Shown here piece by piece: positions 3,951-47,279 of a DNA stretch of 64,000 nt. The notes under the pieces are model-generated. The model ran no database searches and was not told the origin of the DNA. It saw nothing but the letters and a program-made list of their open reading frames with translations. Source of the DNA: a virus; UHGV virus genome UHGV-0041314. One strand, written 5' to 3'. The first letter of the stretch is position 1. Each line of letters opens with the position of its first letter. The position numbers and the translations under genes were made by a program.

Positions 3951-6185
3951 ATGATTAAGACAATTAAAAAATCAAACGGCACAGTAGTAAGTTTTGACCC
4001 AGAAAGACTGAATAAGTGGGCATCATGGGCAGATAAGCGTGGAATTATCTGGTCAGAAGTCACTATGGAAGCCATGAAGCGTGTCTATGAGGGTTGCACT
4101 ACAAAAGAGATGCACCAAGCCATGATTGATGTTTGTGTTGATAAACAAACTCAAGAGTACTCAGATATGGCTGGACGGCTACTTCTGGGGATTATCTACA
4201 AAGAAGCCTTTGGAGGCTTTACTAAGGTTCCTACGCTGGTTACCTTCGTTAAAAATATGGAGAGAGCAGGACTTTGGGAGAAGATGGACTATTCTCAGGA
4301 AGAGCTTGAATATCTGCAAGGATACATTGTGCACTCAAAAGATATCTCTTACGGCTATGCAGTGTTGAAACAGTTCAGAGATAAATATGGTATCCGTGAT
4401 ATTAAAACTGGAAGACTTTTTGAGTCACCACAATTTATGTTTATGGGTATGGCTATGAAAGCCTTTGAGAAGCAACCAAAGCACCGTAGACTGCAAGATG
4501 TTATTAAGCTGTACACTTACCTATCTGACCTGAAGATTAATGCTCCTACACCTTATCTGAATGGTTTACGTGCTACTAAGTCAGGCTATGCGTCATGCTG
4601 TTTGATTAAGGCAAATGATACTGCTGAGTCACTTGGTATTGCTGCAAAGGTTGCTTATGATATGACTACGAAGCAAGCTGGTATTGGTATGCTGATGGAG
4701 ACTCGTACTATTGGTGATGGTATCCGTCAAAACACTATCGAACACATGGGTAAACTACCTTATTACAAGCTTGTACGTTCATCTGTAGAGGCAAATAAAC
4801 AGAAGAGTCGTGGTGGTTCAGCTAACAACTTCTACACCGCTCTAGACCCGCAGATTGAAGATTTACTACGTTTGAAGCACCCTACAACGGTCCCTTCTAA
4901 ACGTATTAATGAGATGGACTACTCATTTGGTACAAATGATTATTTCTGGCAGTGTGTTCAATATGATACAGATTGGTTGCTATTCTCTTACAAGGATGCA
5001 CCAAAACTTTATGATATGTTCTACACCGCATCTGCTGATGAGTTTGCTATGGCAGTTGGTCACGCAGTACATTCTGGTGTTAAACACAGACGAGTAAAGG
5101 CTCGTGAAATTGCTAAACTGTTTATTCAGCAGCGTTATGCAACAGGTCGTGTGTACCCATTCTTCACAAATAATGCAAACACTCATACACCATTTAAAGA
5201 GCCTTTGAAGATGTCAAATCTTTGCATGGAAATTGTGTTGCCAGTGTACGGCTTTGAGAAAGAGACAGACCTTTACAGAGACGATGCTGTGAAGGAGGAT
5301 GGTGAGGTAGCTCTTTGCTTCCTAGCTAGTTTGGTTGCAGGGAGAATTTCAGAAGATGAATACGCTGACGTTGCTTATTATGCTCTTGCAATGGTTGACT
5401 CCGTTATTGACCTTATGGATTATCCGTATCCGTCGATGCGTAACCATGTTCAGAAGCGTCGCTCTGTTGGCATTGGCCTTACAAATGTGGCTCATTACCT
5501 TGCGAAGAACTACGTGAACTACTCTTCAAGGGCTGGTAAGACAAAGCTTCACGAACTTGCAGAGATGCACTCTTACTATCTGCATGAAGCTTCTCTAAGA
5601 CTTGCTAAAGAGCGTGGTGTACCTGAATACATGAAGTTCACTAAGTACCCTGAAGGATGGGTTCCTCCGAAGACAGCTAACAAGAAGATTGATGAGAAGC
5701 ATGATGCAAAACTAAGATATGATTGGGATGACTTAGCACAACGTATCAAAGAAAATGGTGGCATCCGAAACTCTGTACTTGAGGCTTATATGCCTAATGA
5801 GAGTTCTTCACTGGCAACTAATACGACAAACGGCTTGTACCCAATTCGTGACTTTATTTTAACTAAAAAGTCTGCAACTGGTAACGTACTGTTTATTGTT
5901 CCAGATTATGAAGAGTTGAAGTATGTCTATGAAATTGCTTGGGATATTGACACCTTTGACCTGATTGATTGTTATGCAATTGTTCAAAAGTTCACTGGTC
6001 AAGCTATCTCTTCAGATTTCTATGTTGACTACGCAAAAGCTAAGAAGGTATCATTGGCTCAAGCTTTGAAGTATATGATTTATGCCAACTCGGTAGGTAT
6101 GAAAACCATGTACTACCTTAACAGTCGCATCGGTGTAGGTAAGTCTGCACTGCAAGATGCTTATTGCGAGGGCTGTGGTGTTTAG
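3951..6185 (+). CDS. nrdA: ribonucleoside-diphosphate reductase large subunit (class Ia)
   Basis: 744 aa; ATP-cone-like N-terminus; followed by small-subunit gene. Confidence 0.9.
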   Translation: MIKTIKKSNGTVVSFDPERLNKWASWADKRGIIWSEVTMEAMKRVYEGCTTKEMHQAMIDVCVDKQTQEYSDMAGRLLLGIIYKEAFGGFTKVPTLVTFVKNMERAGLWEKMDYSQEELEYLQGYIVHSKDISYGYAVLKQFRDKYGIRDIKTGRLFESPQFMFMGMAMKAFEKQPKHRRLQDVIKLYTYLSDLKINAPTPYLNGLRATKSGYASCCLIKANDTAESLGIAAKVAYDMTTKQAGIGMLMETRTIGDGIRQNTIEHMGKLPYYKLVRSSVEANKQKSRGGSANNFYTALDPQIEDLLRLKHPTTVPSKRINEMDYSFGTNDYFWQCVQYDTDWLLFSYKDAPKLYDMFYTASADEFAMAVGHAVHSGVKHRRVKAREIAKLFIQQRYATGRVYPFFTNNANTHTPFKEPLKMSNLCMEIVLPVYGFEKETDLYRDDAVKEDGEVALCFLASLVAGRISEDEYADVAYYALAMVDSVIDLMDYPYPSMRNHVQKRRSVGIGLTNVAHYLAKNYVNYSSRAGKTKLHELAEMHSYYLHEASLRLAKERGVPEYMKFTKYPEGWVPPKTANKKIDEKHDAKLRYDWDDLAQRIKENGGIRNSVLEAYMPNESSSLATNTTNGLYPIRDFILTKKSATGNVLFIVPDYEELKYVYEIAWDIDTFDLIDCYAIVQKFTGQAISSDFYVDYAKAKKVSLAQALKYMIYANSVGMKTMYYLNSRIGVGKSALQDAYCEGCGV

Positions 6186-7568: not shown

Positions 7569-7810
7569 TGACTTATGTAATTTACTCCAAAACTGGATGC
7601 CCTCAGTGTGAGACTGCAAAGAATTTTGCAAAAGCTCGTGGTATTGACCATGTTGTGAGAATGTTAGGGCAGGATTATGAACTGTCAGACCTGATGGATA
7701 TTGCACAGATGCCAGTTCGTCAGATGCCATTCATCATGAAGACTGATGGTCAAAATCTAAAACCTGTTGGGACGCTACAGAATTTTATGGCAGAGGTGAA
7801 TAATGCTTAA
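7568..7810 (+). CDS. glutaredoxin/NrdH-like redoxin
   Basis: 80 aa; CPQC active-site motif near N-terminus; sits in the nrd operon. Confidence 0.75.
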   Translation: MTYVIYSKTGCPQCETAKNFAKARGIDHVVRMLGQDYELSDLMDIAQMPVRQMPFIMKTDGQNLKPVGTLQNFMAEVNNA

Positions 7811-8009
7811 ACGCCTTTGGGAAGGTTTGGTTGTTGATGCACCAGCCATTGTGATTGGTATGCTTGTTGTTAACCTATTTACTGATTTTGAACAAGGTTC
7901 ATTGTTTGGAGCCATGCTATTATGGGTTATCTTTGAAATATTAGAGATACAGCTAGGCATCACTGAAAAACTAAGAAAACTCGTTTCAAAGTTTTCTAAA
8001 AAGATTTAA
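7803..8009 (+). CDS. small membrane protein (2 predicted TM helices, charged C-terminus)
   Basis: hydrophobic segments then KLRKLVSKFSKKI; terminator follows. Confidence 0.4.
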   Translation: MLKRLWEGLVVDAPAIVIGMLVVNLFTDFEQGSLFGAMLLWVIFEILEIQLGITEKLRKLVSKFSKKI

Positions 8010-10212: not shown

Positions 10213-10250
10213 GGTGATGTGGGTCTTGATAGGCTTACATCACCTTTTTT
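10213..10250 (+). terminator. rho-independent terminator after nrdD
   Basis: GGTGATGT...ACATCACC 8-bp stem then TTTTTT. Confidence 0.55.
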
Positions 10251-10356
10251 ATTGGATGTTAGACATGGCAGAGAGTATTATTGGGTTGTTCATAGGTTCT
10301 GTCTTACTAGGGTTCTTTTTAGGACTCTCTTATTGTGAATTGAGAGATAAGTTAAA

Positions 10357-10557
10357 ATGTTTAAAATACCAAAAACGTTGATATACATACTCCATATTCT
10401 AATCTTCTTCTTTGGGGTTAGTGTTATGGTATGGGGTTTTTCAGACCCACAATGGGGTTTCTCATATCATGGTCAGATGGATTTATGGTCATGCTTCAAA
10501 CCATTTTTAGGGTTAGCTATAGCATTCAGCGCATTGCCAACTAAGGTGAAATTATGA
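10357..10557 (+). CDS. small membrane protein
   Basis: 66 aa, two hydrophobic helices. Confidence 0.35.
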   Translation: MFKIPKTLIYILHILIFFFGVSVMVWGFSDPQWGFSYHGQMDLWSCFKPFLGLAIAFSALPTKVKL

Positions 10558-16522: not shown

Positions 16523-18889
16523 ATGCGCATGGTAAACGACCACGCAGAAGTGATTAAGAGTTCAACTTCTTTAGAGACGTCTCAGGCACAGATTACAATG
16601 ACACCTGAAATGTTCAGCCTTCTGAGTTCTGGTGTATATACCTTTAAAGAAAGGGCAGTGATTCGTGAACTGTCATGCAACGCAGTAGATGCTCAGAAAG
16701 AAGCTGGAAAAGAGAACATCCCGTTCCATGTGCATTTACCTACTCGTTTTGAGCCTTACTTTGAAGTTCGTGATTTTGGAACTGGTTTGACTCATGATAA
16801 AGTTATGAGTTTGTATCTAAACTACGGGGCTTCTACGAAGAATGACTCCAATGACTACATTGGTGCAATGGGTATCGGTTCAAAATCTCCATTTGCAATT
16901 GCTCAGTCATTCACAGTATCTAGCTATGTTGATGGTGTTGTTAATAAGTACTCTGTTTACCTTGAGAATGGTATCCCTCAAGTAACTAAGCTGACCACCA
17001 ACCCAACAAAAGAGCCTAATGGTTTAGCTGTACGTGTAGCAGTTGCTGACCATCGTATTTCAAAGTTCTTTGAAGAGGCTGGTCACGTATACTCATACTT
17101 TGCTGTAAAGCCAGAAAGTAATATTGTATATGATGACGTGTTAGCAGATATGAATGTCATTGCTCGTGAAGAAGGTGTTTATGACGCTATGATTCATAAG
17201 CAAAGCTGGCGTTCTAGTGGTAACAGGACAGAGTTTAATGTGGTGATGGGTAACATTGCCTACCCTGTTAACATGGAAGCACTGCTTGGTGATGATTTCT
17301 TCAAAGTCTTGCCAGAGTTTTTCCGTAGGAGCGTAGACCTTGTAAACATCTATATGCCTATTGGTTCAGTTGCTATTGCAGCTTCTCGTGAAGCATTGCA
17401 GATGAATGATACAACAAAAAATGTTATCATTGAGGCTACTAAAAAGATAACTGAAGCAATCACAAAGGATGTTATCAAGAAAGTTAATAGTCAACCTACA
17501 CTCATGGATGCTGCACAGGCTTATGCTGAGTTACGTTTGAACTCACGAGAGATGTTTAATGCTGTGTGTCCAAAGCTAGAGTGGGGTGGTGTTAAGCTTG
17601 ATTCTCTGGAAGAAGAATTACTAAACATTCGTCGTGGAATTATCTACGCAGAAGACGGCTCAGTCATTTACGAACGTGACGGTAAAGGTAATATTAAGGT
17701 TGATAGGAACGGGAACAATATCCCTAAAGTAGATTATCTTTATGACCCAGTTGCTTATGTCAAGTTCAACTCTTTAGAGAGTAAGATTCGTGCAACATCG
17801 CTTTCCTACACTCAAGAGGCAAGCATGTTCAATATCTTTGGCGCAATGCGTAAAAGTCAAATTGAACAGTTTTTGTTTGTTATAAATGACCGTCGAAATA
17901 AAAACGGTACTGAGAAGACTGTAGGACGCAACCAAATCTTGCGTGGTGCATGTCGAGACTATGCCAGTGAGTCAAGTCTGTTTCACAGATACAATGGTAT
18001 TGTCTTTGTATTCTCTACAGAGAAAGAGCTAGACGACTTAATCAATCTGCACAAACTTGATAAAAGCTTGTTAAAGACTGTGAAGATGTCTGATAAGGAA
18101 CATCATTATCAGCGTAAAGAAGCTGTAAGAGGTGTTGTAAAACTCTGGAAAGCTGTTCCAGCAGAAGGTGTAGCTTCCTATAAAGAGGTGTCAGAAGACT
18201 TAGATACAATTGAAGAGCCTCAGCTTTATATTAAGGCAGTAGGCGACACAGTTGATGGCGAATGTTTTTGCTCATCTCCAGAAGATGTAGCTAAGTCAGT
18301 TGCCAATGTCATTGGAAAGACAGTATATGTTTTCCGAAAAGCAAATTGGAAAAAGATACCAGAAGACTGGATTGAAGTAGATGAGAAGCTCTTGAATGAC
18401 AGCTTAACTGATGTTCACTGGATTAACCATAACAGGTATATGACACGTATCTATATGAATGGTGTCCTTGACCTTACAAGCAGTTGGATTATTGCCAGAA
18501 ACTTTACGTTCAATAACAGGAAGATTTCTCGTGGCTATTGTTATTCGCGGGATACAAACAAAACTATCTTCTTAGAAGGTAATGAAGATGCTGTAGAGGC
18601 AATGTTTGGTAAAATCCAATACGTTGCTGCACCGTTTGCATACACTTACACTATTAGCGTGTTGCAAGATTTGAAAAGTTGTCTTGATAATGATACAAAG
18701 CTTTACAAGAAAATTAAGAAAGCTGGTGACCGCATGGTCATTAAGGTGACAAACTACCTTTCAAAAAGAAAACAAGAAAACTTCTTGCTTTCTCATTTAG
18801 ATTGGAATAAAGTGTCACCCATCGAAGTGAGTAAGTTCTTAGGCTTTGATGTGAAGTGTGTTCCAGAAGGGACTACAATTTACGATTAA
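16523..18889 (+). CDS. rIIA: rIIA-like protein (GHKL ATPase fold)
   Basis: 788 aa; N-terminal RAVIRELSCNAVDA, RDFGTG and DYIGAMGIGSKSPF motifs as I recall them from T4 rIIA; followed by rIIB-like gene. Confidence 0.75.
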   Translation: MRMVNDHAEVIKSSTSLETSQAQITMTPEMFSLLSSGVYTFKERAVIRELSCNAVDAQKEAGKENIPFHVHLPTRFEPYFEVRDFGTGLTHDKVMSLYLNYGASTKNDSNDYIGAMGIGSKSPFAIAQSFTVSSYVDGVVNKYSVYLENGIPQVTKLTTNPTKEPNGLAVRVAVADHRISKFFEEAGHVYSYFAVKPESNIVYDDVLADMNVIAREEGVYDAMIHKQSWRSSGNRTEFNVVMGNIAYPVNMEALLGDDFFKVLPEFFRRSVDLVNIYMPIGSVAIAASREALQMNDTTKNVIIEATKKITEAITKDVIKKVNSQPTLMDAAQAYAELRLNSREMFNAVCPKLEWGGVKLDSLEEELLNIRRGIIYAEDGSVIYERDGKGNIKVDRNGNNIPKVDYLYDPVAYVKFNSLESKIRATSLSYTQEASMFNIFGAMRKSQIEQFLFVINDRRNKNGTEKTVGRNQILRGACRDYASESSLFHRYNGIVFVFSTEKELDDLINLHKLDKSLLKTVKMSDKEHHYQRKEAVRGVVKLWKAVPAEGVASYKEVSEDLDTIEEPQLYIKAVGDTVDGECFCSSPEDVAKSVANVIGKTVYVFRKANWKKIPEDWIEVDEKLLNDSLTDVHWINHNRYMTRIYMNGVLDLTSSWIIARNFTFNNRKISRGYCYSRDTNKTIFLEGNEDAVEAMFGKIQYVAAPFAYTYTISVLQDLKSCLDNDTKLYKKIKKAGDRMVIKVTNYLSKRKQENFLLSHLDWNKVSPIEVSKFLGFDVKCVPEGTTIYD

Positions 18890-18968: not shown

Positions 18969-20078
18969 ATGACTACTAAGACTAAAGCACAGATTGACGC
19001 AGAAATTTACGAACTGGTTAAAGAAGGTAAGCTGACTAAAACAGCTATTGCACAGAAGTTCAATACTTCAACCCGTTCAGTTGGTCGTGCTGTAGAGCGT
19101 CATGAAGCAACCTTAAAAGGTAAGAAGAAGGTGACTTCTACACCAGCTAAGAAGACCCTAAAGCAAGTTGCTAAGTCAGTTAAAAAGAAAGCTGGCAAAC
19201 CAGTTGAAAAGGCCGTTAAAGATGCTGTACAGAAAGCTCCAGTAAATAAACTGCATGAAGCTATGCAGAAAGATGATAAGATTGAGTACATGATTACTGG
19301 TGACTCTGTAATTATGACTTACGGTTCAGAATCTGAAATTGTTGAGTCTACTCATCCGAACTATCAAGAAATTGTAGTTCATGTTGTGAAAGGTGAGTTC
19401 AAGAAAGCATTTGAACTAATGAACATTCGTAAGTCTATCGAAAACTTCACTCAGGGTGCTATCACAATCAAAGGCGATAAGCTCTTCTACGGTGCTGTTG
19501 AGATGCGTTCTACTCTGGTTGACCGTATTCTTCATATGATGAAAACTGGTGATAAAGGTTTTGAACGACTTGTAATGTTCTTCGAAAAACTGATGGAAAA
19601 CCCATCTAAAGATTCTGTAGAACAACTTTGGGGATTTGTATCACACCTTGATGTTGAAATTGATGAAGAAGGCTACATCATTGGTTGGAAGAAAGTCTCT
19701 ACTCGTGAAGGCAAGCTGGTTGACTCTCACACCTACAAAGTGCCTAATGATTTGGGTAACATTGTAGAGATGCCACGTTGGATGGTTGATAACAACCGTA
19801 ACGTAACTTGCTCTCAAGGTCTTCATGTTGGTGCTTGGGATTATGTTCGTTGCTTCTCAGGTGATACCATCCTGAAGGTTCGTGTCCATCCACGAGATGT
19901 TGTATCTGTTCCAACTGATTACAACGATATGAAGATGCGTTCCTCTCGTTATGAAGTTGCAGCAATCGTTGATAATCAACGTAAAGTGCTGAAAGCATGG
20001 GATGGTAAGACTGAAGCTTTGCATGTCATCGTTGGTACTGCTGGTGAACTTATCTCTCAACGTAAACGTGAAATCTAA
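18969..20078 (+). CDS. rIIB: rIIB-like protein
   Basis: 369 aa; C-terminal RVHPRDVVSVPTDYNDMKMR resembles the T4 rIIB segment as I recall it; adjacent to rIIA. Confidence 0.75.
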   Translation: MTTKTKAQIDAEIYELVKEGKLTKTAIAQKFNTSTRSVGRAVERHEATLKGKKKVTSTPAKKTLKQVAKSVKKKAGKPVEKAVKDAVQKAPVNKLHEAMQKDDKIEYMITGDSVIMTYGSESEIVESTHPNYQEIVVHVVKGEFKKAFELMNIRKSIENFTQGAITIKGDKLFYGAVEMRSTLVDRILHMMKTGDKGFERLVMFFEKLMENPSKDSVEQLWGFVSHLDVEIDEEGYIIGWKKVSTREGKLVDSHTYKVPNDLGNIVEMPRWMVDNNRNVTCSQGLHVGAWDYVRCFSGDTILKVRVHPRDVVSVPTDYNDMKMRSSRYEVAAIVDNQRKVLKAWDGKTEALHVIVGTAGELISQRKREI

Positions 20079-20178: not shown

Positions 20179-20727
20179 ATGAAGAAATTGATTCTAGGAT
20201 TGTGCTTAATGTTTACAGCACATTTATCTTATGCAGTTGACTGCCCAGAGCTATCAATTAGCCAAAAAGTTAACATGTTAAAAGCTTACCAGTATGGTGA
20301 GAACAACATGGGGAAAGGCTGGGGTATTACTCTAGCAGCTATAGCCTTACAAGAGTCAGAGTTAGGTCTGAAGGTAGAGAATAAAAAGACCCATGACTAT
20401 GGTATTTTCCAGAATCACTTGAAGACTGTTGTAAAGCGTAACAAAATTAGTCCTAATGTGGCTAAAAAGAAACTCTTAAAAGATTTTGACTATGCAGCAA
20501 AAGAGACACATAAAGAGCTTGAGTTTTGGACTAAGGTACATGGTCACCCGAAGTCAAAGAAGACTTTACAAAAAGTTTTAGCATCATATAATGCTGGGTA
20601 TTCGTACAAAATCCCTAAAGCTAAGAAATACTCTCAAGATGTCTATAACAATATGAAAGTTATTGCTCAATGTGAATTTGCAACAAACATTTCTAAGGTA
20701 AATCATGAAAAAATTAAGAAAGTCTGA
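20179..20727 (+). CDS. secreted protein with SLT-like (lytic transglycosylase) motif
   Basis: N-terminal signal peptide; AIALQESELG...YGIFQ resembles the SLT ES/GLMQ motifs. Confidence 0.4.
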   Translation: MKKLILGLCLMFTAHLSYAVDCPELSISQKVNMLKAYQYGENNMGKGWGITLAAIALQESELGLKVENKKTHDYGIFQNHLKTVVKRNKISPNVAKKKLLKDFDYAAKETHKELEFWTKVHGHPKSKKTLQKVLASYNAGYSYKIPKAKKYSQDVYNNMKVIAQCEFATNISKVNHEKIKKV

Positions 20728-21400
20728 TGAAGTCCTGTGCCACGCTTATGACTTGCATCCTCATGAGTTAGGTCTTGATTCCTGTGTATGGACTCCAGAA
20801 CAGTGCAGGGATTTTGAAGACACTGCAAGAGAAGTTGTATGTTCACTTGAAGAGTTCCACACATCAGAACCAATTGTAAACGTTGTGGATAAAGAAACTG
20901 GACAAGCTATAGGTGTAAGTCGTGATAGTTTAGTCATAGTCAATAAAGACCTTGTAGAAAAAGGCAACCTCATCTTAGCAGATATTGATGGTGTTCTTAC
21001 AAATTTTAATCACGAAGATTGCTCAACGGAATTGACTGATGGGTCATTCTCACAATACACTAATCTTCTTGACTCTGTAAGAGCAAAACCAACATATGTT
21101 TTTAGTATTATTGATGCAATTGCTAATCATGCTGCCATTGGACTCTTGACAGCGAGAGGTGAATCTCAGAGAATACCTACTGAGATGTTCTTAAGGCATA
21201 ACATAGAGCATGACTACATGCTTTTTATGCGTGGTTTTGGAACTAACTCTATAAGTGCAGAAAGTTTGAAAGTGAGGATGATTCAGTCTTGCATTCTTCC
21301 TTATTTTAATATAGTATGCTTTATAGAAGATACAGAGAAGAATGTTCAGAAGGTTAACAGAATCCTTCCACACATTAAAACCATGTTAGTTAAACATTGA
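20705..21400 (+). CDS. HAD-superfamily phosphatase-like protein (possible nucleotidase)
   Basis: C-terminal half contains ILADIDGVLTN (HAD motif I, DxDG[TV]). Confidence 0.4.
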   Translation: MKKLRKSDEVLCHAYDLHPHELGLDSCVWTPEQCRDFEDTAREVVCSLEEFHTSEPIVNVVDKETGQAIGVSRDSLVIVNKDLVEKGNLILADIDGVLTNFNHEDCSTELTDGSFSQYTNLLDSVRAKPTYVFSIIDAIANHAAIGLLTARGESQRIPTEMFLRHNIEHDYMLFMRGFGTNSISAESLKVRMIQSCILPYFNIVCFIEDTEKNVQKVNRILPHIKTMLVKH

Positions 21401-21411
21401 GAGAAAAACTT

Positions 21412-21876
21412 ATGAACAATATCATTACGGTAGCACTGGACGATACGGCAAACAAATCTGAAGTAGTTCGTAAAATGATTCAAGGTAACTTTGAAGGTAA
21501 AATTTTCCGTGCTGTTAATGTAAAAGCTGATGGCAGTATTCGTGAATACCGTGCATTGTTGAATGTTAAAAAGCACGTAAAAGGTGCTGGTTCAACGACT
21601 GCACACAAAGAAAACCTGATGACTATCTACGATATGGGTAAGGCTTCAGAGTTAGGTGCTGAAGGTATCGTTAAAGAAGGTGCTCCGTATCGCTCTTTCA
21701 ATCTGGAAACTACTCTTATGCTTTCCTTTACAAGTGGTTCTAAAACAATCACTTATCTCTTTACTGATGCTGCAACGGTATCTGCTATTAAGGATAGCAC
21801 TGTCAAAGCTGGCGTAGTTGCTGCTGCAAAAGCTTCTTCGATGGCTGCGAATATCCTTGCTAAAGTCCTCGGTTAA
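21412..21876 (+). CDS. hypothetical protein
   Basis: track ORF from TTG 21397; ATG 21412; terminator follows. Confidence 0.4.
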   Translation: MNNIITVALDDTANKSEVVRKMIQGNFEGKIFRAVNVKADGSIREYRALLNVKKHVKGAGSTTAHKENLMTIYDMGKASELGAEGIVKEGAPYRSFNLETTLMLSFTSGSKTITYLFTDAATVSAIKDSTVKAGVVAAAKASSMAANILAKVLG

Positions 21877-21888
21877 GGTTAAGATACA

Positions 21889-21909
21889 GGCTCCTTCGGG
21901 AGCCTTTTT
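21889..21909 (+). terminator. rho-independent terminator
   Basis: GGCTCC-TTCG-GGAGCC then TTTTT. Confidence 0.6.
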
Positions 21910-21928
21910 CATTTCAGGAGATTGTTAA

Positions 21929-22276
21929 ATGACATTTAAAGAGTTCTGTCAAGCTACTTTCATAATTGTTTTCTTAGTTGGGGCAGGTGTCTGGGGAGGA
22001 TACTCTTACAGAGACTACCAAGTTGCTGAAGCTGAGTTAAGCAATGAGAAACTAATAAGTGTTGCTAAAGATGCTTATCAGGAAGGTTTAGCCACACTCA
22101 GCACCAATTACAAAAATGATTTGAAAGATGTGCTTGCTAAGAATAAGCATACAAAAGAGGTACTAACATATGAAAAGACTAAGCCAGAGTTTTATAATGT
22201 TTGTGTTACTGATAATTATGTCAGGGTGTTCAACGAACAAAGCGAACAGTACATTCAAAAACTACCAAGTAAGTGA
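21929..22276 (+). CDS. i-spanin-like protein (N-terminal TM + coiled coil)
   Basis: AGGAGA RBS; N-terminal TM helix FIIVFLVGAGVWGGY; next gene starts inside it in another frame. Confidence 0.35.
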   Translation: MTFKEFCQATFIIVFLVGAGVWGGYSYRDYQVAEAELSNEKLISVAKDAYQEGLATLSTNYKNDLKDVLAKNKHTKEVLTYEKTKPEFYNVCVTDNYVRVFNEQSEQYIQKLPSK

Positions 22277-22439
22277 GAGTGACAAGTACACTCAAGAAGA
22301 ATCAAGATTCACTGTCAAAGGTAATACTGGTAGTGATGTGGCAGCAGCCCTTGAATTTTATCGTGATGGTTTTTACCAGTGCACAATAAAAGCTAATAAC
22401 CTTATTGATATGATTTTATTAGGGAACAAACAGCAATGA
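22170..22439 (+). CDS. lipoprotein, o-spanin-like, overlapping the i-spanin-like gene
   Basis: AAGAGG RBS; signal peptide ending in lipobox-like IIMSGC; 107-nt out-of-frame overlap with 21929..22276. Confidence 0.3.
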   Translation: MKRLSQSFIMFVLLIIMSGCSTNKANSTFKNYQVSESDKYTQEESRFTVKGNTGSDVAAALEFYRDGFYQCTIKANNLIDMILLGNKQQ

Positions 22440-23727: not shown

Positions 23728-24513
23728 ATGGGTATTGTAAAAATCATCAATGGCGATATCTTTGCAGCATTTGATAAAGGTAAGTTTGACGTCATCGGTC
23801 ACGGTTGCAACTGTATGAACTTAATGGGTGCAGGTATCGCTGACAAGATTTCTAAACTTTACCCAAAAGCATATGAGACTGATACAGAAGTTTATCTGTA
23901 TGCAGGTGGAATAGGCCACAAGCCCTGTGAGAATTTACTAGGCAATTTCTCTGTAGCACGTTTAAAACAAGGCCGTATAGCTAACCTTTACACTCAGCTT
24001 AAGACTGGTAAAGATGCCCGATACAGTGCTTTAGAGTCATCTTTGAAACAGCTTAACAGATACTGTGAAGTCAATCAGTTGAAGAAAGTCGGGTTACCTA
24101 TGATTGGTGCAGGTATCGGTGGGCTAGACCCTCAAGCCGTCACAGTTATCATTAATCAGGTGATGAAGAGTGTAGATGTTTATCTGTATGTCTACGAAGG
24201 AGAGATGTACCACAAGTTACGCTCAGGTTGGAAGAACTACTGTGAGCCAGAATACTTTGCAGGTGTAGTAACGTTCACAGATGATGCAGTTACCCTCTTC
24301 AGACGAAGAAAAGGTAAGATACATCAAAGTAACCCTCCGGTTGAGAAGATGTCTCTAAGTAACGCTCTAGTTACCCACCTGTCGAAGGGCAATCACAGGA
24401 TAGCCGTAACATTTGGCAGTGATGCAGATACATATATCTATGCAAGAACTGATGAGGATATCGAGACGGTCTTCTCTTCATCGGAAGTTACCTTCTTAGA
24501 CGCAAAGAACTAA
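23728..24513 (+). CDS. macro-domain (ADP-ribose binding/processing) protein
   Basis: GDIF...DVIGHGCNCMNLMGAGIADKI and LPMIGAGIGGL resemble the macro-domain Gly-rich motifs. Confidence 0.5.
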   Translation: MGIVKIINGDIFAAFDKGKFDVIGHGCNCMNLMGAGIADKISKLYPKAYETDTEVYLYAGGIGHKPCENLLGNFSVARLKQGRIANLYTQLKTGKDARYSALESSLKQLNRYCEVNQLKKVGLPMIGAGIGGLDPQAVTVIINQVMKSVDVYLYVYEGEMYHKLRSGWKNYCEPEYFAGVVTFTDDAVTLFRRRKGKIHQSNPPVEKMSLSNALVTHLSKGNHRIAVTFGSDADTYIYARTDEDIETVFSSSEVTFLDAKN

Positions 24514-24590
24514 GAAACTCTGTATAATATTCACAATATACTAAGCCTTTCTTATCTGGTAAATTTTTCAGGTAAGGAGGGCTTTTTTAT

Positions 24591-26760: not shown

Positions 26761-27057
26761 ATGAAATTATCAAATAAAGTCCGTGAAAATCTAAGCAAGT
26801 TACTTAATAAAATTGATTTCATTGAAACATCAAGGAATAGTCATGATGTTATGGAATGGTTACACGGAAAAATCAAAGGCCGTCGTGTAGTGATTTGCTT
26901 ATGGAATAGTTGCAGGGAATATAAAAAACCTGTATTACAAGTCAATATCTATGATGATACTTTCAAAAGCCCTGTAAAGTCTAAAAGCGATTTATTAGAA
27001 TCCTATGAGATAACTGTAAATGGCAAAGTATCACGTAAAGAGGAAACACCATGTTAA
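26761..27057 (+). CDS. small hypothetical protein (98 aa), array gene 5
   Basis: type-A cassette variant upstream. Confidence 0.5.
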   Translation: MKLSNKVRENLSKLLNKIDFIETSRNSHDVMEWLHGKIKGRRVVICLWNSCREYKKPVLQVNIYDDTFKSPVKSKSDLLESYEITVNGKVSRKEETPC

Positions 27058-27383
27058 TGACTGGTATCACTGCAATCATTGCCATTTTAGCGCTATATAA
27101 GGCATATAAAGCCTATAATCTAGCAAATAAGGCAATCACACAGCAGGTTAGCAATAACCTTGTAGAGAGCTTTCTAGGGCGTCTCAGTGATGAGCAAATA
27201 AAGCGGCTAGAGATGAGCTTCAGATTCAAAGCGAAAACCTATCAGATAAGTGACATCTTCAAGGATGATTTCCAGTTAGTCGATGATTATAATTCTCTGA
27301 TAAATGCTTTAAATATCAGTGACTTAAAAGACTACTACGCTGTAATTGTTCAAGAATTGAGCAAACGAAAACAAAACTGTTGA
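27051..27383 (+). CDS. small membrane protein (110 aa, N-terminal TM), array gene 6
   Basis: no cassette; start overlaps upstream stop; AAAGAGG RBS. Confidence 0.45.
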   Translation: MLMTGITAIIAILALYKAYKAYNLANKAITQQVSNNLVESFLGRLSDEQIKRLEMSFRFKAKTYQISDIFKDDFQLVDDYNSLINALNISDLKDYYAVIVQELSKRKQNC

Positions 27384-34962: not shown

Positions 34963-35466
34963 CTATAATTGTAGGTTGCATTCTTTACTTACCTCTTCAA
35001 GTTTAACCTCAGAATCCTTAAGTCGTTTCTTATGAACTCTGAATCTTATTAGTGAGATGATGATACCAACTAAAGGAGCAGCATACAAGTACCAAACATC
35101 ATATACCTTTGCAGTAATCTGTGTAATGGTCAAGTCTTGAGCTATGTAGCTGATTGCTGAGACGGCTAGTAATGTTGCTAAGAAGAAAACCAGTATCATA
35201 ACAATATTCAGACAACCTCTGGCATGGTATTCATGCTTAATGCACTTATTCTTCTCTTCAACAACCCTGTTGTAGTCATTTGTAAAGTCTCTGTAGAAAG
35301 CTTTCAAGTATTCTTGACTGTAGCCTTCAAAGCAACCTGTACCGTACCAATAATCACCACCGAAATGTGCTATGATACCAGTATCTCCATTTGGTTTGGT
35401 TACTTTCAAAGAAGTATGATGGCGAGTGTCCTGATAATCTATCTTATATCTTTCTTCGTAAATCAT
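34963..35466 (-). CDS. membrane protein (two TM helices in C-terminal half)
   Basis: track ORF; GAGAGGG RBS; hydrophobic segments LNIVMILVFFLATLLAVSAI and LYAAPLVGIIISLI. Confidence 0.4.
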   Translation of the reverse strand: MIYEERYKIDYQDTRHHTSLKVTKPNGDTGIIAHFGGDYWYGTGCFEGYSQEYLKAFYRDFTNDYNRVVEEKNKCIKHEYHARGCLNIVMILVFFLATLLAVSAISYIAQDLTITQITAKVYDVWYLYAAPLVGIIISLIRFRVHKKRLKDSEVKLEEVSKECNLQL

Positions 35467-37815: not shown

Positions 37816-38280
37816 TTACTTTGGATATACACTGTCAAGATAAATGTCAGCTTCCATTCTACGTCTGTTTTTCAAGCCGTTTGAAGTGACCTTCTTACCT
37901 TTGACTGTAATCTTGTTCCACCACTGCATAGCTTCTGCACAACCTACCTTATTACCAGCATTGTGGCGCTTGATAAATGTAGAATCCTGCATAGCTGTGA
38001 TACCGATGTTGTATGTTTCACTTACAAGTGCATCGAACTCATTCTGAGAAGTTGGAACCTTGATAGCTTTGTTCACTGCTGCAACAAACTTTTCAACATC
38101 TGCGAGAAGATACTGTTCGGCTTGTTCAGCAGTAATTTTCATACCCATCTTAACAGGTTTACCAGAAATACTGGTTGTCCCATACCCAATTGTAGGGATT
38201 CCAGCAGAGTCTTCGTAAGCCTCTAACTTCAGACCTTCAAAGAACTTAATAGCTTCTAAACCTTTTCTTGAGAGTTGCAT
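37816..38280 (-). CDS. lysozyme / endolysin (glycoside hydrolase family 24, T4-lysozyme type)
   Basis: N-terminal FFEGLKLEAYEDSAGIPTIGYGTT matches the GH24 catalytic-region pattern; strong AGGAGG RBS. Confidence 0.8.
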   Translation of the reverse strand: MQLSRKGLEAIKFFEGLKLEAYEDSAGIPTIGYGTTSISGKPVKMGMKITAEQAEQYLLADVEKFVAAVNKAIKVPTSQNEFDALVSETYNIGITAMQDSTFIKRHNAGNKVGCAEAMQWWNKITVKGKKVTSNGLKNRRRMEADIYLDSVYPK

Positions 38281-46721: not shown

Positions 46722-47279
46722 ATGAGATATTTGAAGTATGCTTCATGGATTGTCTTAGCTTTGTTAGAGCCATTTGCAGCAATCTTAGCAGTTATCTTAG
46801 CACCTTTCGTAGTCCCATTCTACAGTGAGAAGAAAGGACACTTACCTTTCGGCTTCAGATGGATGGAGACATATGACAACCCAATTGATGGTGATAAAGG
46901 GCATGTCGAACGATGGGCTAAGATTAGAAAGATTGGCAAGCTTGGTGTCTATATGCAGAGAGTCGGTTGGCTCTGGAGAAACAAAGCTTATAACTTCTCT
47001 TACCATGTATTAGGAAGAGATGTAAAAGATGTTACTAAGTGGAAAGGTAATATCAACGTAAGTTCTAACCCTGAAGATAATCAGACAGGTTATCTCCTAA
47101 TGTGGAACAGTAATGCTTGGGGATTATTCGCTTTTATCCCATCAATTAAAGTCTTTGGTAAACAATTCTACTGGAGAATTTATGTTGGATGGAAGCTAAA
47201 AAGTGTTGTCCCAGAAGAAAGAGCATTCTCAAGGGAAAGAGTTATGTTGGCATTCTTTATTCATCCACTAAGAAAGTAA
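46722..47279 (+). CDS. hypothetical membrane protein embedded in tRNA cluster
   Basis: AAAGAGG RBS; N-terminal hydrophobic segment; between tRNA-Arg and tRNA-Gln. Confidence 0.45.
   Translation: MRYLKYASWIVLALLEPFAAILAVILAPFVVPFYSEKKGHLPFGFRWMETYDNPIDGDKGHVERWAKIRKIGKLGVYMQRVGWLWRNKAYNFSYHVLGRDVKDVTKWKGNINVSSNPEDNQTGYLLMWNSNAWGLFAFIPSIKVFGKQFYWRIYVGWKLKSVVPEERAFSRERVMLAFFIHPLRK

Follow-up and report, generated by a model that had tools for sequence, protein, structure and literature searches.

Gene organisation of the putative spanin locus

In the window, i.e., the whole 64-kb stretch of viral DNA that was analysed, two overlapping genes encode a putative i-spanin (ORF1) and a putative o-spanin (ORF2). 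The pair is surrounded by early/middle-type genes (rIIA, rIIB, and polynucleotide kinase), and the ribosome-binding site of the first gene is immediately preceded by a terminator-like hairpin. The features of the region are the following:

16523..18889, + strand: rIIA, upstream of the spanin pair
18969..20078, + strand: rIIB, upstream of the spanin pair
20179..20727, + strand: protein with a Sec signal and a weak SLT match, 1.2 kb upstream of the pair
20705..21400, + strand: polynucleotide kinase, upstream of the spanin pair
21397..21876, + strand: hypothetical gene, upstream of the spanin pair
21888..21910, + strand: terminator-like GC-rich hairpin AGGCTCC-TTCG-GGAGCCT followed by a T-run (terminator scan; -14.9 kcal/mol)
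21917..21921, + strand: Shine-Dalgarno sequence AGGAG of the i-spanin gene, read from the sequence, 7 nt before the ATG
21929..22276, + strand: putative i-spanin gene, 115 aa (ORF list, hydropathy, PHROG 1152, alignment, codon-position diversity)
22155..22160, + strand: Shine-Dalgarno sequence AAGAGG of the o-spanin gene, within the i-spanin coding sequence, 9 nt from the ATG at 22170
22170..22276, + strand: dual-coding overlap of 107 nt (diversity halved, codon periodicity lost)
22170..22439, + strand: putative o-spanin gene, 89 aa (ORF list, lipobox regular expression, PHROG 4180, alignment, third-position diversity)
37816..38280, - strand: endolysin, a GH24-type lysozyme (PHROG 7, phrog_7, E 3e-58)

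On the 3' side, the pair is followed by five small hypothetical genes and a phosphatase gene (23728..24513). By megablast, the spanin region is assigned to Felixounavirus, the Felix O1-like myophages (258 matching phage records), with Escherichia phage vB_EcoM_E9 as the best match (98.6% identity); judged by its sequence, the window is another Felixounavirus isolate.

ORF1 has a single hydrophobic segment, residues 6-24 (FCQATFIIVFLVGAGVWGG; Kyte-Doolittle 19-residue mean 1.75), and its predicted layout comprises a short N-terminus, a TM helix at about residues 6-24, and a periplasmic part of about 88 aa. The earlier note had read this gene as an N-terminal TM helix followed by a helical soluble region, and this reading agrees both with the hydropathy profile and with the Felix01 i-spanin as given in the supplement of Kongari et al. 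2018, where an 88-residue periplasmic part with 65.9% predicted helix is listed (PMC6139136). The same supplement lists no predicted coiled coil for this protein, a point against the spanin reading. A single-sequence AlphaFold2 model of the i-spanin is likewise all-helical, at low confidence (pLDDT 48.1). ORF1 matches PHROG 1152, 'Rz-like spanin', with E 9e-42. Across eight divergent sequences, M1, G24, L37, L65, E82, K83, F88, C92, Y97, and N102 are invariant; the conserved C-terminal motif, EKTK..F.N.C..(D/E)Y...FN(E), includes the invariant Cys92, which is the only periplasmic cysteine of the protein.

ORF2 lies in the +1 frame relative to ORF1, and the open reading frames are exactly those described before. 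Its N-terminus, MKRLSQSFIMFVLLIIMSG|CST, consists of a basic n-region, a hydrophobic core, and the lipobox IMSG|C, so that residues 1-19 form the predicted signal peptide and Cys20 fits the PROSITE-type lipobox pattern (by regular expression); the ribosome-binding site and the lipobox-terminated signal peptide that had been proposed for this gene are thus both found in the sequence. Purine-rich, Shine-Dalgarno-like sequences stand at the equivalent place in Maleficent, Zyzzx, and phiEa21-4. The residue at position +2 is Ser, and hence the Asp signal for retention in the inner membrane is lacking; Ser at +2 is compatible with predicted sorting to the outer membrane. In a six-frame scan of ATG-initiated ORFs of at least 40 aa, ORF2 was the sole ORF of the 64-kb window with a lipoprotein signal. 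Residues M1, L4, C20, G54, C71, N76, and L78 are invariant in eight divergent sequences, and Cys20 is invariant in the eight divergent homologues as well as in 30 close sequences. The best-matching family is PHROG 4180 (E 2e-49), which is labelled 'unknown function'; PHROG 456, 'Rz-like spanin', is matched weakly (9e-5). An AlphaFold2 model from a 9-sequence alignment, again of low confidence (pLDDT 45.7), places helices at residues 54-67 and 72-88. A search for homologous proteins with the o-spanin recovered 24 relatives, all of them close.

Annotation pipelines often omit the o-spanin gene or place its start at the internal ATG 22218 (MSGC..., 73 aa). Since a start at 22218 removes the signal peptide, 22170 is the start to annotate.

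The lipoprotein had also been described as larger and less Pro-rich than typical o-spanins. The second part of this description holds: the mature protein of 70 aa contains no proline and one further cysteine, C71, and its relatives carry 0-4 prolines. Proline-poor o-spanin families, e.g., T4 PseT.2, are already known (PMC6139136). The first part holds only in comparison with lambda Rz1, as the periplasmic parts of overlapped-class o-spanins in the table of Kongari et al. range from 43 to 167 aa, many of them 60-76 aa, and that of Felix01 is listed at 70 (PMC6139136).

The lysozyme, which the earlier note had placed about 16 kb away on the opposite strand, lies 15.4 kb from the pair on the - strand. 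Association with lysis genes, absent from the window, is found for the homologues in the cassettes of Bas82 and VLCpiS10a (the latter less completely annotated) and, next to the endolysin, in P778. Nor is there an obvious holin next to the pair, again in line with the initial description: among the TM-containing ORFs of the window, neither a holin family nor a holin annotation was recognised (PHROGs; one ORF by tblastn), which accords with most published accounts. In Felix O1-like phages, the lysis genes are scattered and do not form a cassette, according to the Moogle genome announcement, which names a putative holin (PMC4319497); in the Meda announcement, the holin was not identified (PMC6486253).

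Prior description of the family

The pair has been catalogued before. In the survey of Kongari et al. 2018, it appears as 'Felix01, ovl', with the i-spanin at 5330-5678 and the o-spanin at 5571-5841, 115 and 89 aa in length, an overlap of 107 nt, and the same Shine-Dalgarno sequence as in the window (PMC6139136). Only a few residues separate the i-spanin of the window from the Felix01 sequence in the supplement of that survey. Among the overlapped i-spanins, the JH2 family has 15 members, including Felix01, Moogle, Mushroom, wV8, and EC6 as well as the podophages PhiEco32, NJ01, ECBP2, and KBNP1711, and the JH2 o-spanin family has 11 members, including Felix01 (PMC6139136). Families were delimited there at identities of 40% or more, covering no less than 40% of the periplasmic part, and the pair of the window exceeds this threshold for the JH2/Felix O1 families. 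The pair of the window thus corresponds to Felix O1 p014 and the next gene. Compared with the named Felixounavirus relatives, its proteins show about 90-98% identity, with a few substitutions, and the position of the lipobox and the genome neighbourhood are the same. Moreover, many GenBank records label the two ORFs i-spanin (or Rz-like spanin) and o-spanin.

The reading of the pair as i-spanin and o-spanin, advanced at first from the letters of the window, is therefore supported by the match to PHROG 1152, by the listing in Kongari et al., and by the homologues that lie in lysis cassettes. Both the pair and the two features that had seemed odd are already known from the literature, and because the pair is already catalogued, the observation is correct but ordinary. 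No experimental test of any member of the Felix O1/JH2 spanin family was found in the literature.

Selection on both reading frames

The overlap pairs i-spanin residues 81-115 with the signal peptide, the lipobox, and the first 16 mature residues of the o-spanin. Diversity was assessed over the 511-nt region in the window, three GenBank records, and 29 IMG/VR contigs, which yielded 30 distinct sequences representing Felixounavirus and Mooglevirus. Neither ORF is interrupted in any of them (30/30), and the lipobox [LIT][MI]SGC with Cys20, C92 of the i-spanin, and C71 of the o-spanin are likewise kept throughout (30/30). Nucleotide diversity by codon position was as follows:

i-only zone, 241 nt, i-frame: positions 1/2/3 = 0.077/0.053/0.219
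o-only zone, 163 nt, o-frame: positions 1/2/3 = 0.080/0.052/0.320
overlap zone, 107 nt, i-frame: positions 1/2/3 = 0.055/0.041/0.067

Where a single frame is read, mean diversity is 0.116 (i-only) and 0.152 (o-only); in the overlap it falls to 0.055, without codon periodicity. This zone-wise pattern of codon-position diversity is the signature expected for two real genes on shared DNA. Thus, both reading frames are under purifying selection, and the arrangement of two genes overlapping in different frames, as it was originally perceived, stands.

Distant relatives and their genomic contexts

Besides the Felixounavirus records, tblastn recovered the two proteins in phages further removed, and never one without the other. 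Overlapped homologues with 24-48% identity occur in other myophages and in phiEco32-like podophages. The identities given below come from tblastn and from alignment, and the two measures differ by a few points:

Felixounavirus records: i-spanin about 85-100%; o-spanin 76-100% (the o-spanin range includes Mooglevirus)
Mooglevirus: i-spanin 77%; o-spanin 78%
Hafnia phage Zyzzx: i-spanin 36-38%; o-spanin 48%
Erwinia phage phiEa21-4: i-spanin 26%; o-spanin 35%
Yersinia phage P778: i-spanin 25-28%; o-spanin 35-38%
phiEco32 (podophage): i-spanin 27-34%; o-spanin 26%
Bas82 and VLCpiS10a (siphophages): i-spanin 21-24% (33% local in VLCpiS10a); o-spanin 28-33%

When the TM helix and the signal peptide are left out, the homology persists, with pairwise E values of 1e-6 to 1e-20. 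The overlapped layout is retained in 8/8 of the other phages examined, and in most relatives the MK(R/K)L start of the o-spanin overlies, or adjoins, the (Y)EKTK motif of the i-spanin; in Zyzzx and P778, where additional in-frame ATGs occur upstream, the o-spanin start is less certain. The pairs of phiEco32-like phages (Kuravirus) and those of the Bas82/FSL SP-062 type are distant homologues in both partners (24-37% identity) and resemble that of the window in that the o-spanin ATG lies at the EKT(K/N) motif of the i-spanin and the same Cys is conserved in each partner, although these phages have other morphotypes and the genes stand in other genome contexts. The siphophage i-spanins differ from that of the window in their greater length (132 aa), the C-terminal tail being extended, and in lacking the upstream hairpin. 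FSL_SP-062 is given by Kongari et al. apart from the JH2 family entries (PMC6139136).

Bas82 is annotated with a holin, an endolysin, a membrane protein, the i-spanin, and the o-spanin, in this order. The layout of VLCpiS10a is the same, with the second gene annotated as 'hypothetical protein'; of the spanin pair, only the i-spanin is annotated there, and the ORF of the o-spanin was located by tblastn. Yersinia phage P778 has the pair immediately after an endolysin gene whose product shares 57% identity with the endolysin of the window. The Bas82 cassette and the adjacency to the endolysin in P778 tie this spanin family to lysis.

Comparison with experimentally studied spanins

None of the experimentally studied spanins that were compared appears to be related in sequence to the pair of the window. 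T4 PseT.3 and PseT.2 gave no detectable homology (BLASTP E 17 and 9.4; hhalign probability 0.2% and 6%), no sequence relationship to lambda Rz was detected (hhalign probability 0.2%), and the same is true of P2 LysB and LysC (hhalign probability 1% and 6%). Neither Pfam nor NCBIfam returned anything above threshold for either protein, and searches of PDB sequences with the family profiles produced noise only. The o-spanin type of lambda Rz1/P2 LysC (PF23793) was considered for ORF2 and rejected, the match reaching E 0.25 and 11.7 bits against a cut-off of 27 and the mature part being free of proline. Among the o-spanin relatives, two of eight match PF23793 LysC, with a best E of 0.003.

Given these null results of BLASTP and hhalign against tested spanins, membership can be assigned to the Felix O1/JH2 family only, and the function ascribed to the pair rests on architecture and context rather than on homology. 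The failure to detect homology to tested spanins fits the extreme diversity of these proteins; Kongari et al. counted 143 i-spanin and 125 o-spanin families (PMC6139136).

T4 PseT.3/PseT.2 have the same predicted job, with an i-spanin of 117 aa and an o-spanin with a periplasmic part of 83 residues; the T4 o-spanin, like that of the window, lacks a proline-rich region, and the T4 genes are likewise unlinked to the holin and the endolysin and adjoin pseT, the gene for polynucleotide kinase. However, the T4 genes belong to the 'separated' class (T4-like phages, about -4 in the table of Kongari et al.), whereas those of the window overlap, and the T4 i-spanin has no periplasmic Cys and the T4 o-spanin two essential ones, as opposed to one per partner in the window. 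Lambda Rz/Rz1 resemble the pair of the window in combining a type II inner-membrane protein with an outer-membrane lipoprotein, both read from one stretch of DNA in different frames, in their periplasmic cysteines, and in a presumed role in membrane fusion. Nonetheless, Rz1 lies wholly within Rz, has a mature form far below 70 residues, and carries a functionally critical penta-proline stretch; Rz, for its part, has 153 aa and two coiled-coil domains, and the genes form part of the S-R-Rz cassette. Intermolecular disulfides have been proposed as a general feature of spanins (PMC6139136), and the one conserved periplasmic Cys that the sequences indicate for each partner here is consistent with that proposal.

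Proposed mechanism

From the paradigms of lambda Rz/Rz1 and T4 PseT.3/PseT.2, we infer the topology, the lipidation, the complex, the disulfides, and the fusion step for the pair of the window. The N-terminal TM helix would hold the 115-aa i-spanin in the inner membrane in an N-in/C-out orientation, and the remaining part of about 88 aa, helical for the most part, would extend into the periplasm. The 89-aa precursor of the o-spanin would be exported by Sec, lipid-modified at Cys20, and then cleaved by signal peptidase II, and with Ser at +2 Lol would deliver the mature lipoprotein to the outer membrane, where it would sit in the inner leaflet. Both partners probably homodimerise, each via its single conserved Cys (C92 in the i-spanin and C71 in the o-spanin), and the periplasmic parts of the two proteins would bind each other to form a bridge through the peptidoglycan. 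Once the murein has been destroyed by the unlinked endolysin, the spanin complexes would be free to collapse and to fuse the inner and outer membranes, whereby the last barrier to the release of progeny would disappear.

Alternative explanations

The evidence can also be read in other ways. The position of the pair amid early/middle-type genes and far from the endolysin, together with a best PHROG of the o-spanin whose label gives no function, would suit a lipoprotein of the superinfection-exclusion or receptor-masking type, such as T5 Llp or Cor, in which case the upstream TM protein would be unrelated and the overlap accidental. Yet phages of three morphotypes (myo-, podo-, and siphophages) inherit the two genes together as an overlapped pair, at identities as low as 24-35%, the pair ends a holin-led cassette in Bas82 and VLCpiS10a and follows the endolysin in P778, and both partners carry a conserved periplasmic Cys, as spanins do; such a function is accordingly very improbable. 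It is more improbable still, to the point of being hardly credible, that ORF2 is an unexpressed ORF arising by chance in an alternative frame within and beyond the i-spanin gene. AT-rich DNA does commonly yield short ORFs of this kind, and several annotation pipelines drop ORF2 or use the ATG at 22218. Nonetheless, in the 163 nt past the i-spanin stop it is the third positions of the o-frame that are most diverse, the ORF, its MK(R/K)L start, and the lipobox Cys are kept in relatives at 26-48% identity, several relatives have Shine-Dalgarno-like sequences upstream, and no other ORF in the 64 kb has a lipoprotein signal.

Another possibility, marginally less remote than an exclusion-type lipoprotein and still quite unlikely, is that the pair is a spanin by descent but dispensable, and that the outer membrane is mainly disrupted by a disruptin-like peptide or by the SLT-like protein encoded at 20179..20727. 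In Felix O1-like phages, neither the holin nor the complete lysis pathway has been worked out (PMC6486253), a protein with a Sec signal and some likeness to SLT is encoded only 1.2 kb upstream, and the hairpin ahead of the pair could hold spanin expression low. Against this, both frames are under strong purifying selection and the pair is conserved across genera, no disruptin-like candidate was identified, and the SLT match falls below the Pfam threshold and the protein has no PDB relative. Weighing against the spanin reading are the lack of detected similarity to tested spanins, the sub-threshold results in Pfam and NCBIfam, the label of PHROG 4180, the low confidence of the models, the missing coiled coil, and a terminator-like hairpin ahead of a pair with no evident promoter. 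On balance, the analysis indicates that the pair is very probably the known overlapped two-component spanin of the Felix O1/JH2 family, with its function predicted.

The upstream hairpin and the significance of the locus

The succession of hairpin, U-run, Shine-Dalgarno sequence, and ATG seen in the window recurs at the i-spanin homologues of Zyzzx, phiEa21-4, P778, and phiEco32, and in phiEa21-4 the hairpin is annotated as a terminator. Because a MAFFT alignment brought the upstream hairpins out of structural register, they were compared one by one. The stem sequences differ between the phages and the genes upstream are unrelated; the hairpin is absent from the siphophage cassettes. This pattern suggests that, in the lineages that have it, the hairpin moves together with the spanin genes. 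Ahead of the pair in the window, no promoter is evident. Possible roles of the hairpin include a leaky terminator, a device for dosage control, and a stabiliser of RNA ends. That the spanin pair moves between myo-, podo-, and siphophages as a compact module in which the position of the overlap is largely fixed, and whose version in myo- and podophages includes a conserved regulatory hairpin just 5' of the i-spanin ribosome-binding site, is rather unlikely; if this were true, the hairpin of the module might act, e.g., as a leaky terminator that meters the dosage or timing of spanins outside lysis cassettes.

Beyond correct annotation, the locus is of little importance. The question that remains for Felix O1-like phages concerns the holin and the timing of the scattered lysis genes rather than the spanins. 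Nonetheless, the pair completes the predicted lysis set, endolysin and spanins, in phages that are widely used for the biocontrol of Salmonella and E. coli.

Start of the o-spanin gene

In most public annotations and metagenome gene calls, the o-spanin is started at an internal ATG at 22218, which yields a 73-aa protein beginning MSGC (a single cluster of 303 members) and thus deprives it of its signal peptide. In some other records, the gene is left out and a 36-aa ORF is called instead. The conserved start, MK(R/K)L, lies together with its SD at 22170.

The i-spanin of GU169904.1, named 'Staphylococcus phage SA1', is 98% identical to that of the window, and the phage records matched by megablast include two named for Campylobacter and one for Staphylococcus. 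Such records, which carry near-identical Felixounavirus sequence under the names of Gram-positive or Campylobacter hosts, are probably chimeric or mislabelled.

Neighbouring genes and the holin question

Genes near the spanin pair
20179-20727 (+), 182-aa SLT-like protein with a Sec signal and a weak SLT match
20705-21400 (+), polynucleotide kinase

The SLT-like gene is flanked by rIIB and the polynucleotide kinase gene and is situated 1.2 kb 5' of the spanin pair. Its product has a cleavable-looking Sec signal (between MKKLILGLCLMFTAHLSYA and VD) and a weak, sub-threshold match to SLT lytic transglycosylases (E 1.2e-3); relatives are named 'putative lysin' or T4 'Vs.1-like' in GenBank, and none was found in the PDB by sequence.

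In T4 (134002-135781), the gene order is alc, pseT.3, pseT.2, pseT.1, pseT. Both there and in the window, the spanin genes lie beside the polynucleotide kinase gene and are remote from the endolysin. The spanins of the two phages share no sequence homology; the common neighbourhood may be a coincidence or a non-orthologous replacement.

Small proteins with strong TM segments (one or two each)
7803-8009 (+)
10214-10557 (+)
27051-27383 (+)
34963-35466 (-)
46722-47279 (+)

None of these five has a holin PHROG match or a holin annotation anywhere. One of them, a two-TM protein of 167 aa, is encoded on the endolysin's strand, 2.4 kb 3' of that gene.

Hairpins around the spanin genes

Regions 5' of i-spanin genes that contain a hairpin followed by a T-run
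Window 21888-21928, GC-rich hairpin directly 5' of the i-spanin SD
L003 2901-2946
L005 3450-3494
L006 2721-2768
L008 1441-1488

The last four precede i-spanin homologues in loci of distant phages. A further terminator-like long hairpin (17 pairs, 24543-24584, (+)) stands 3' of a phosphatase gene, and with that at 21888 it flanks an eight-gene block: the two spanin genes, five small hypothetical ones and the phosphatase gene.

The arrangement ahead of the i-spanin recurs in four further phage groups, including that of the podophage phiEco32, and is not present in the siphophage lysis cassettes (Bas82 and VLCpiS10a). Stem sequences differ between groups, and the genes upstream of the hairpin are unrelated. 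The hairpin may be a leaky terminator or a dosage device that moves together with the spanin module.
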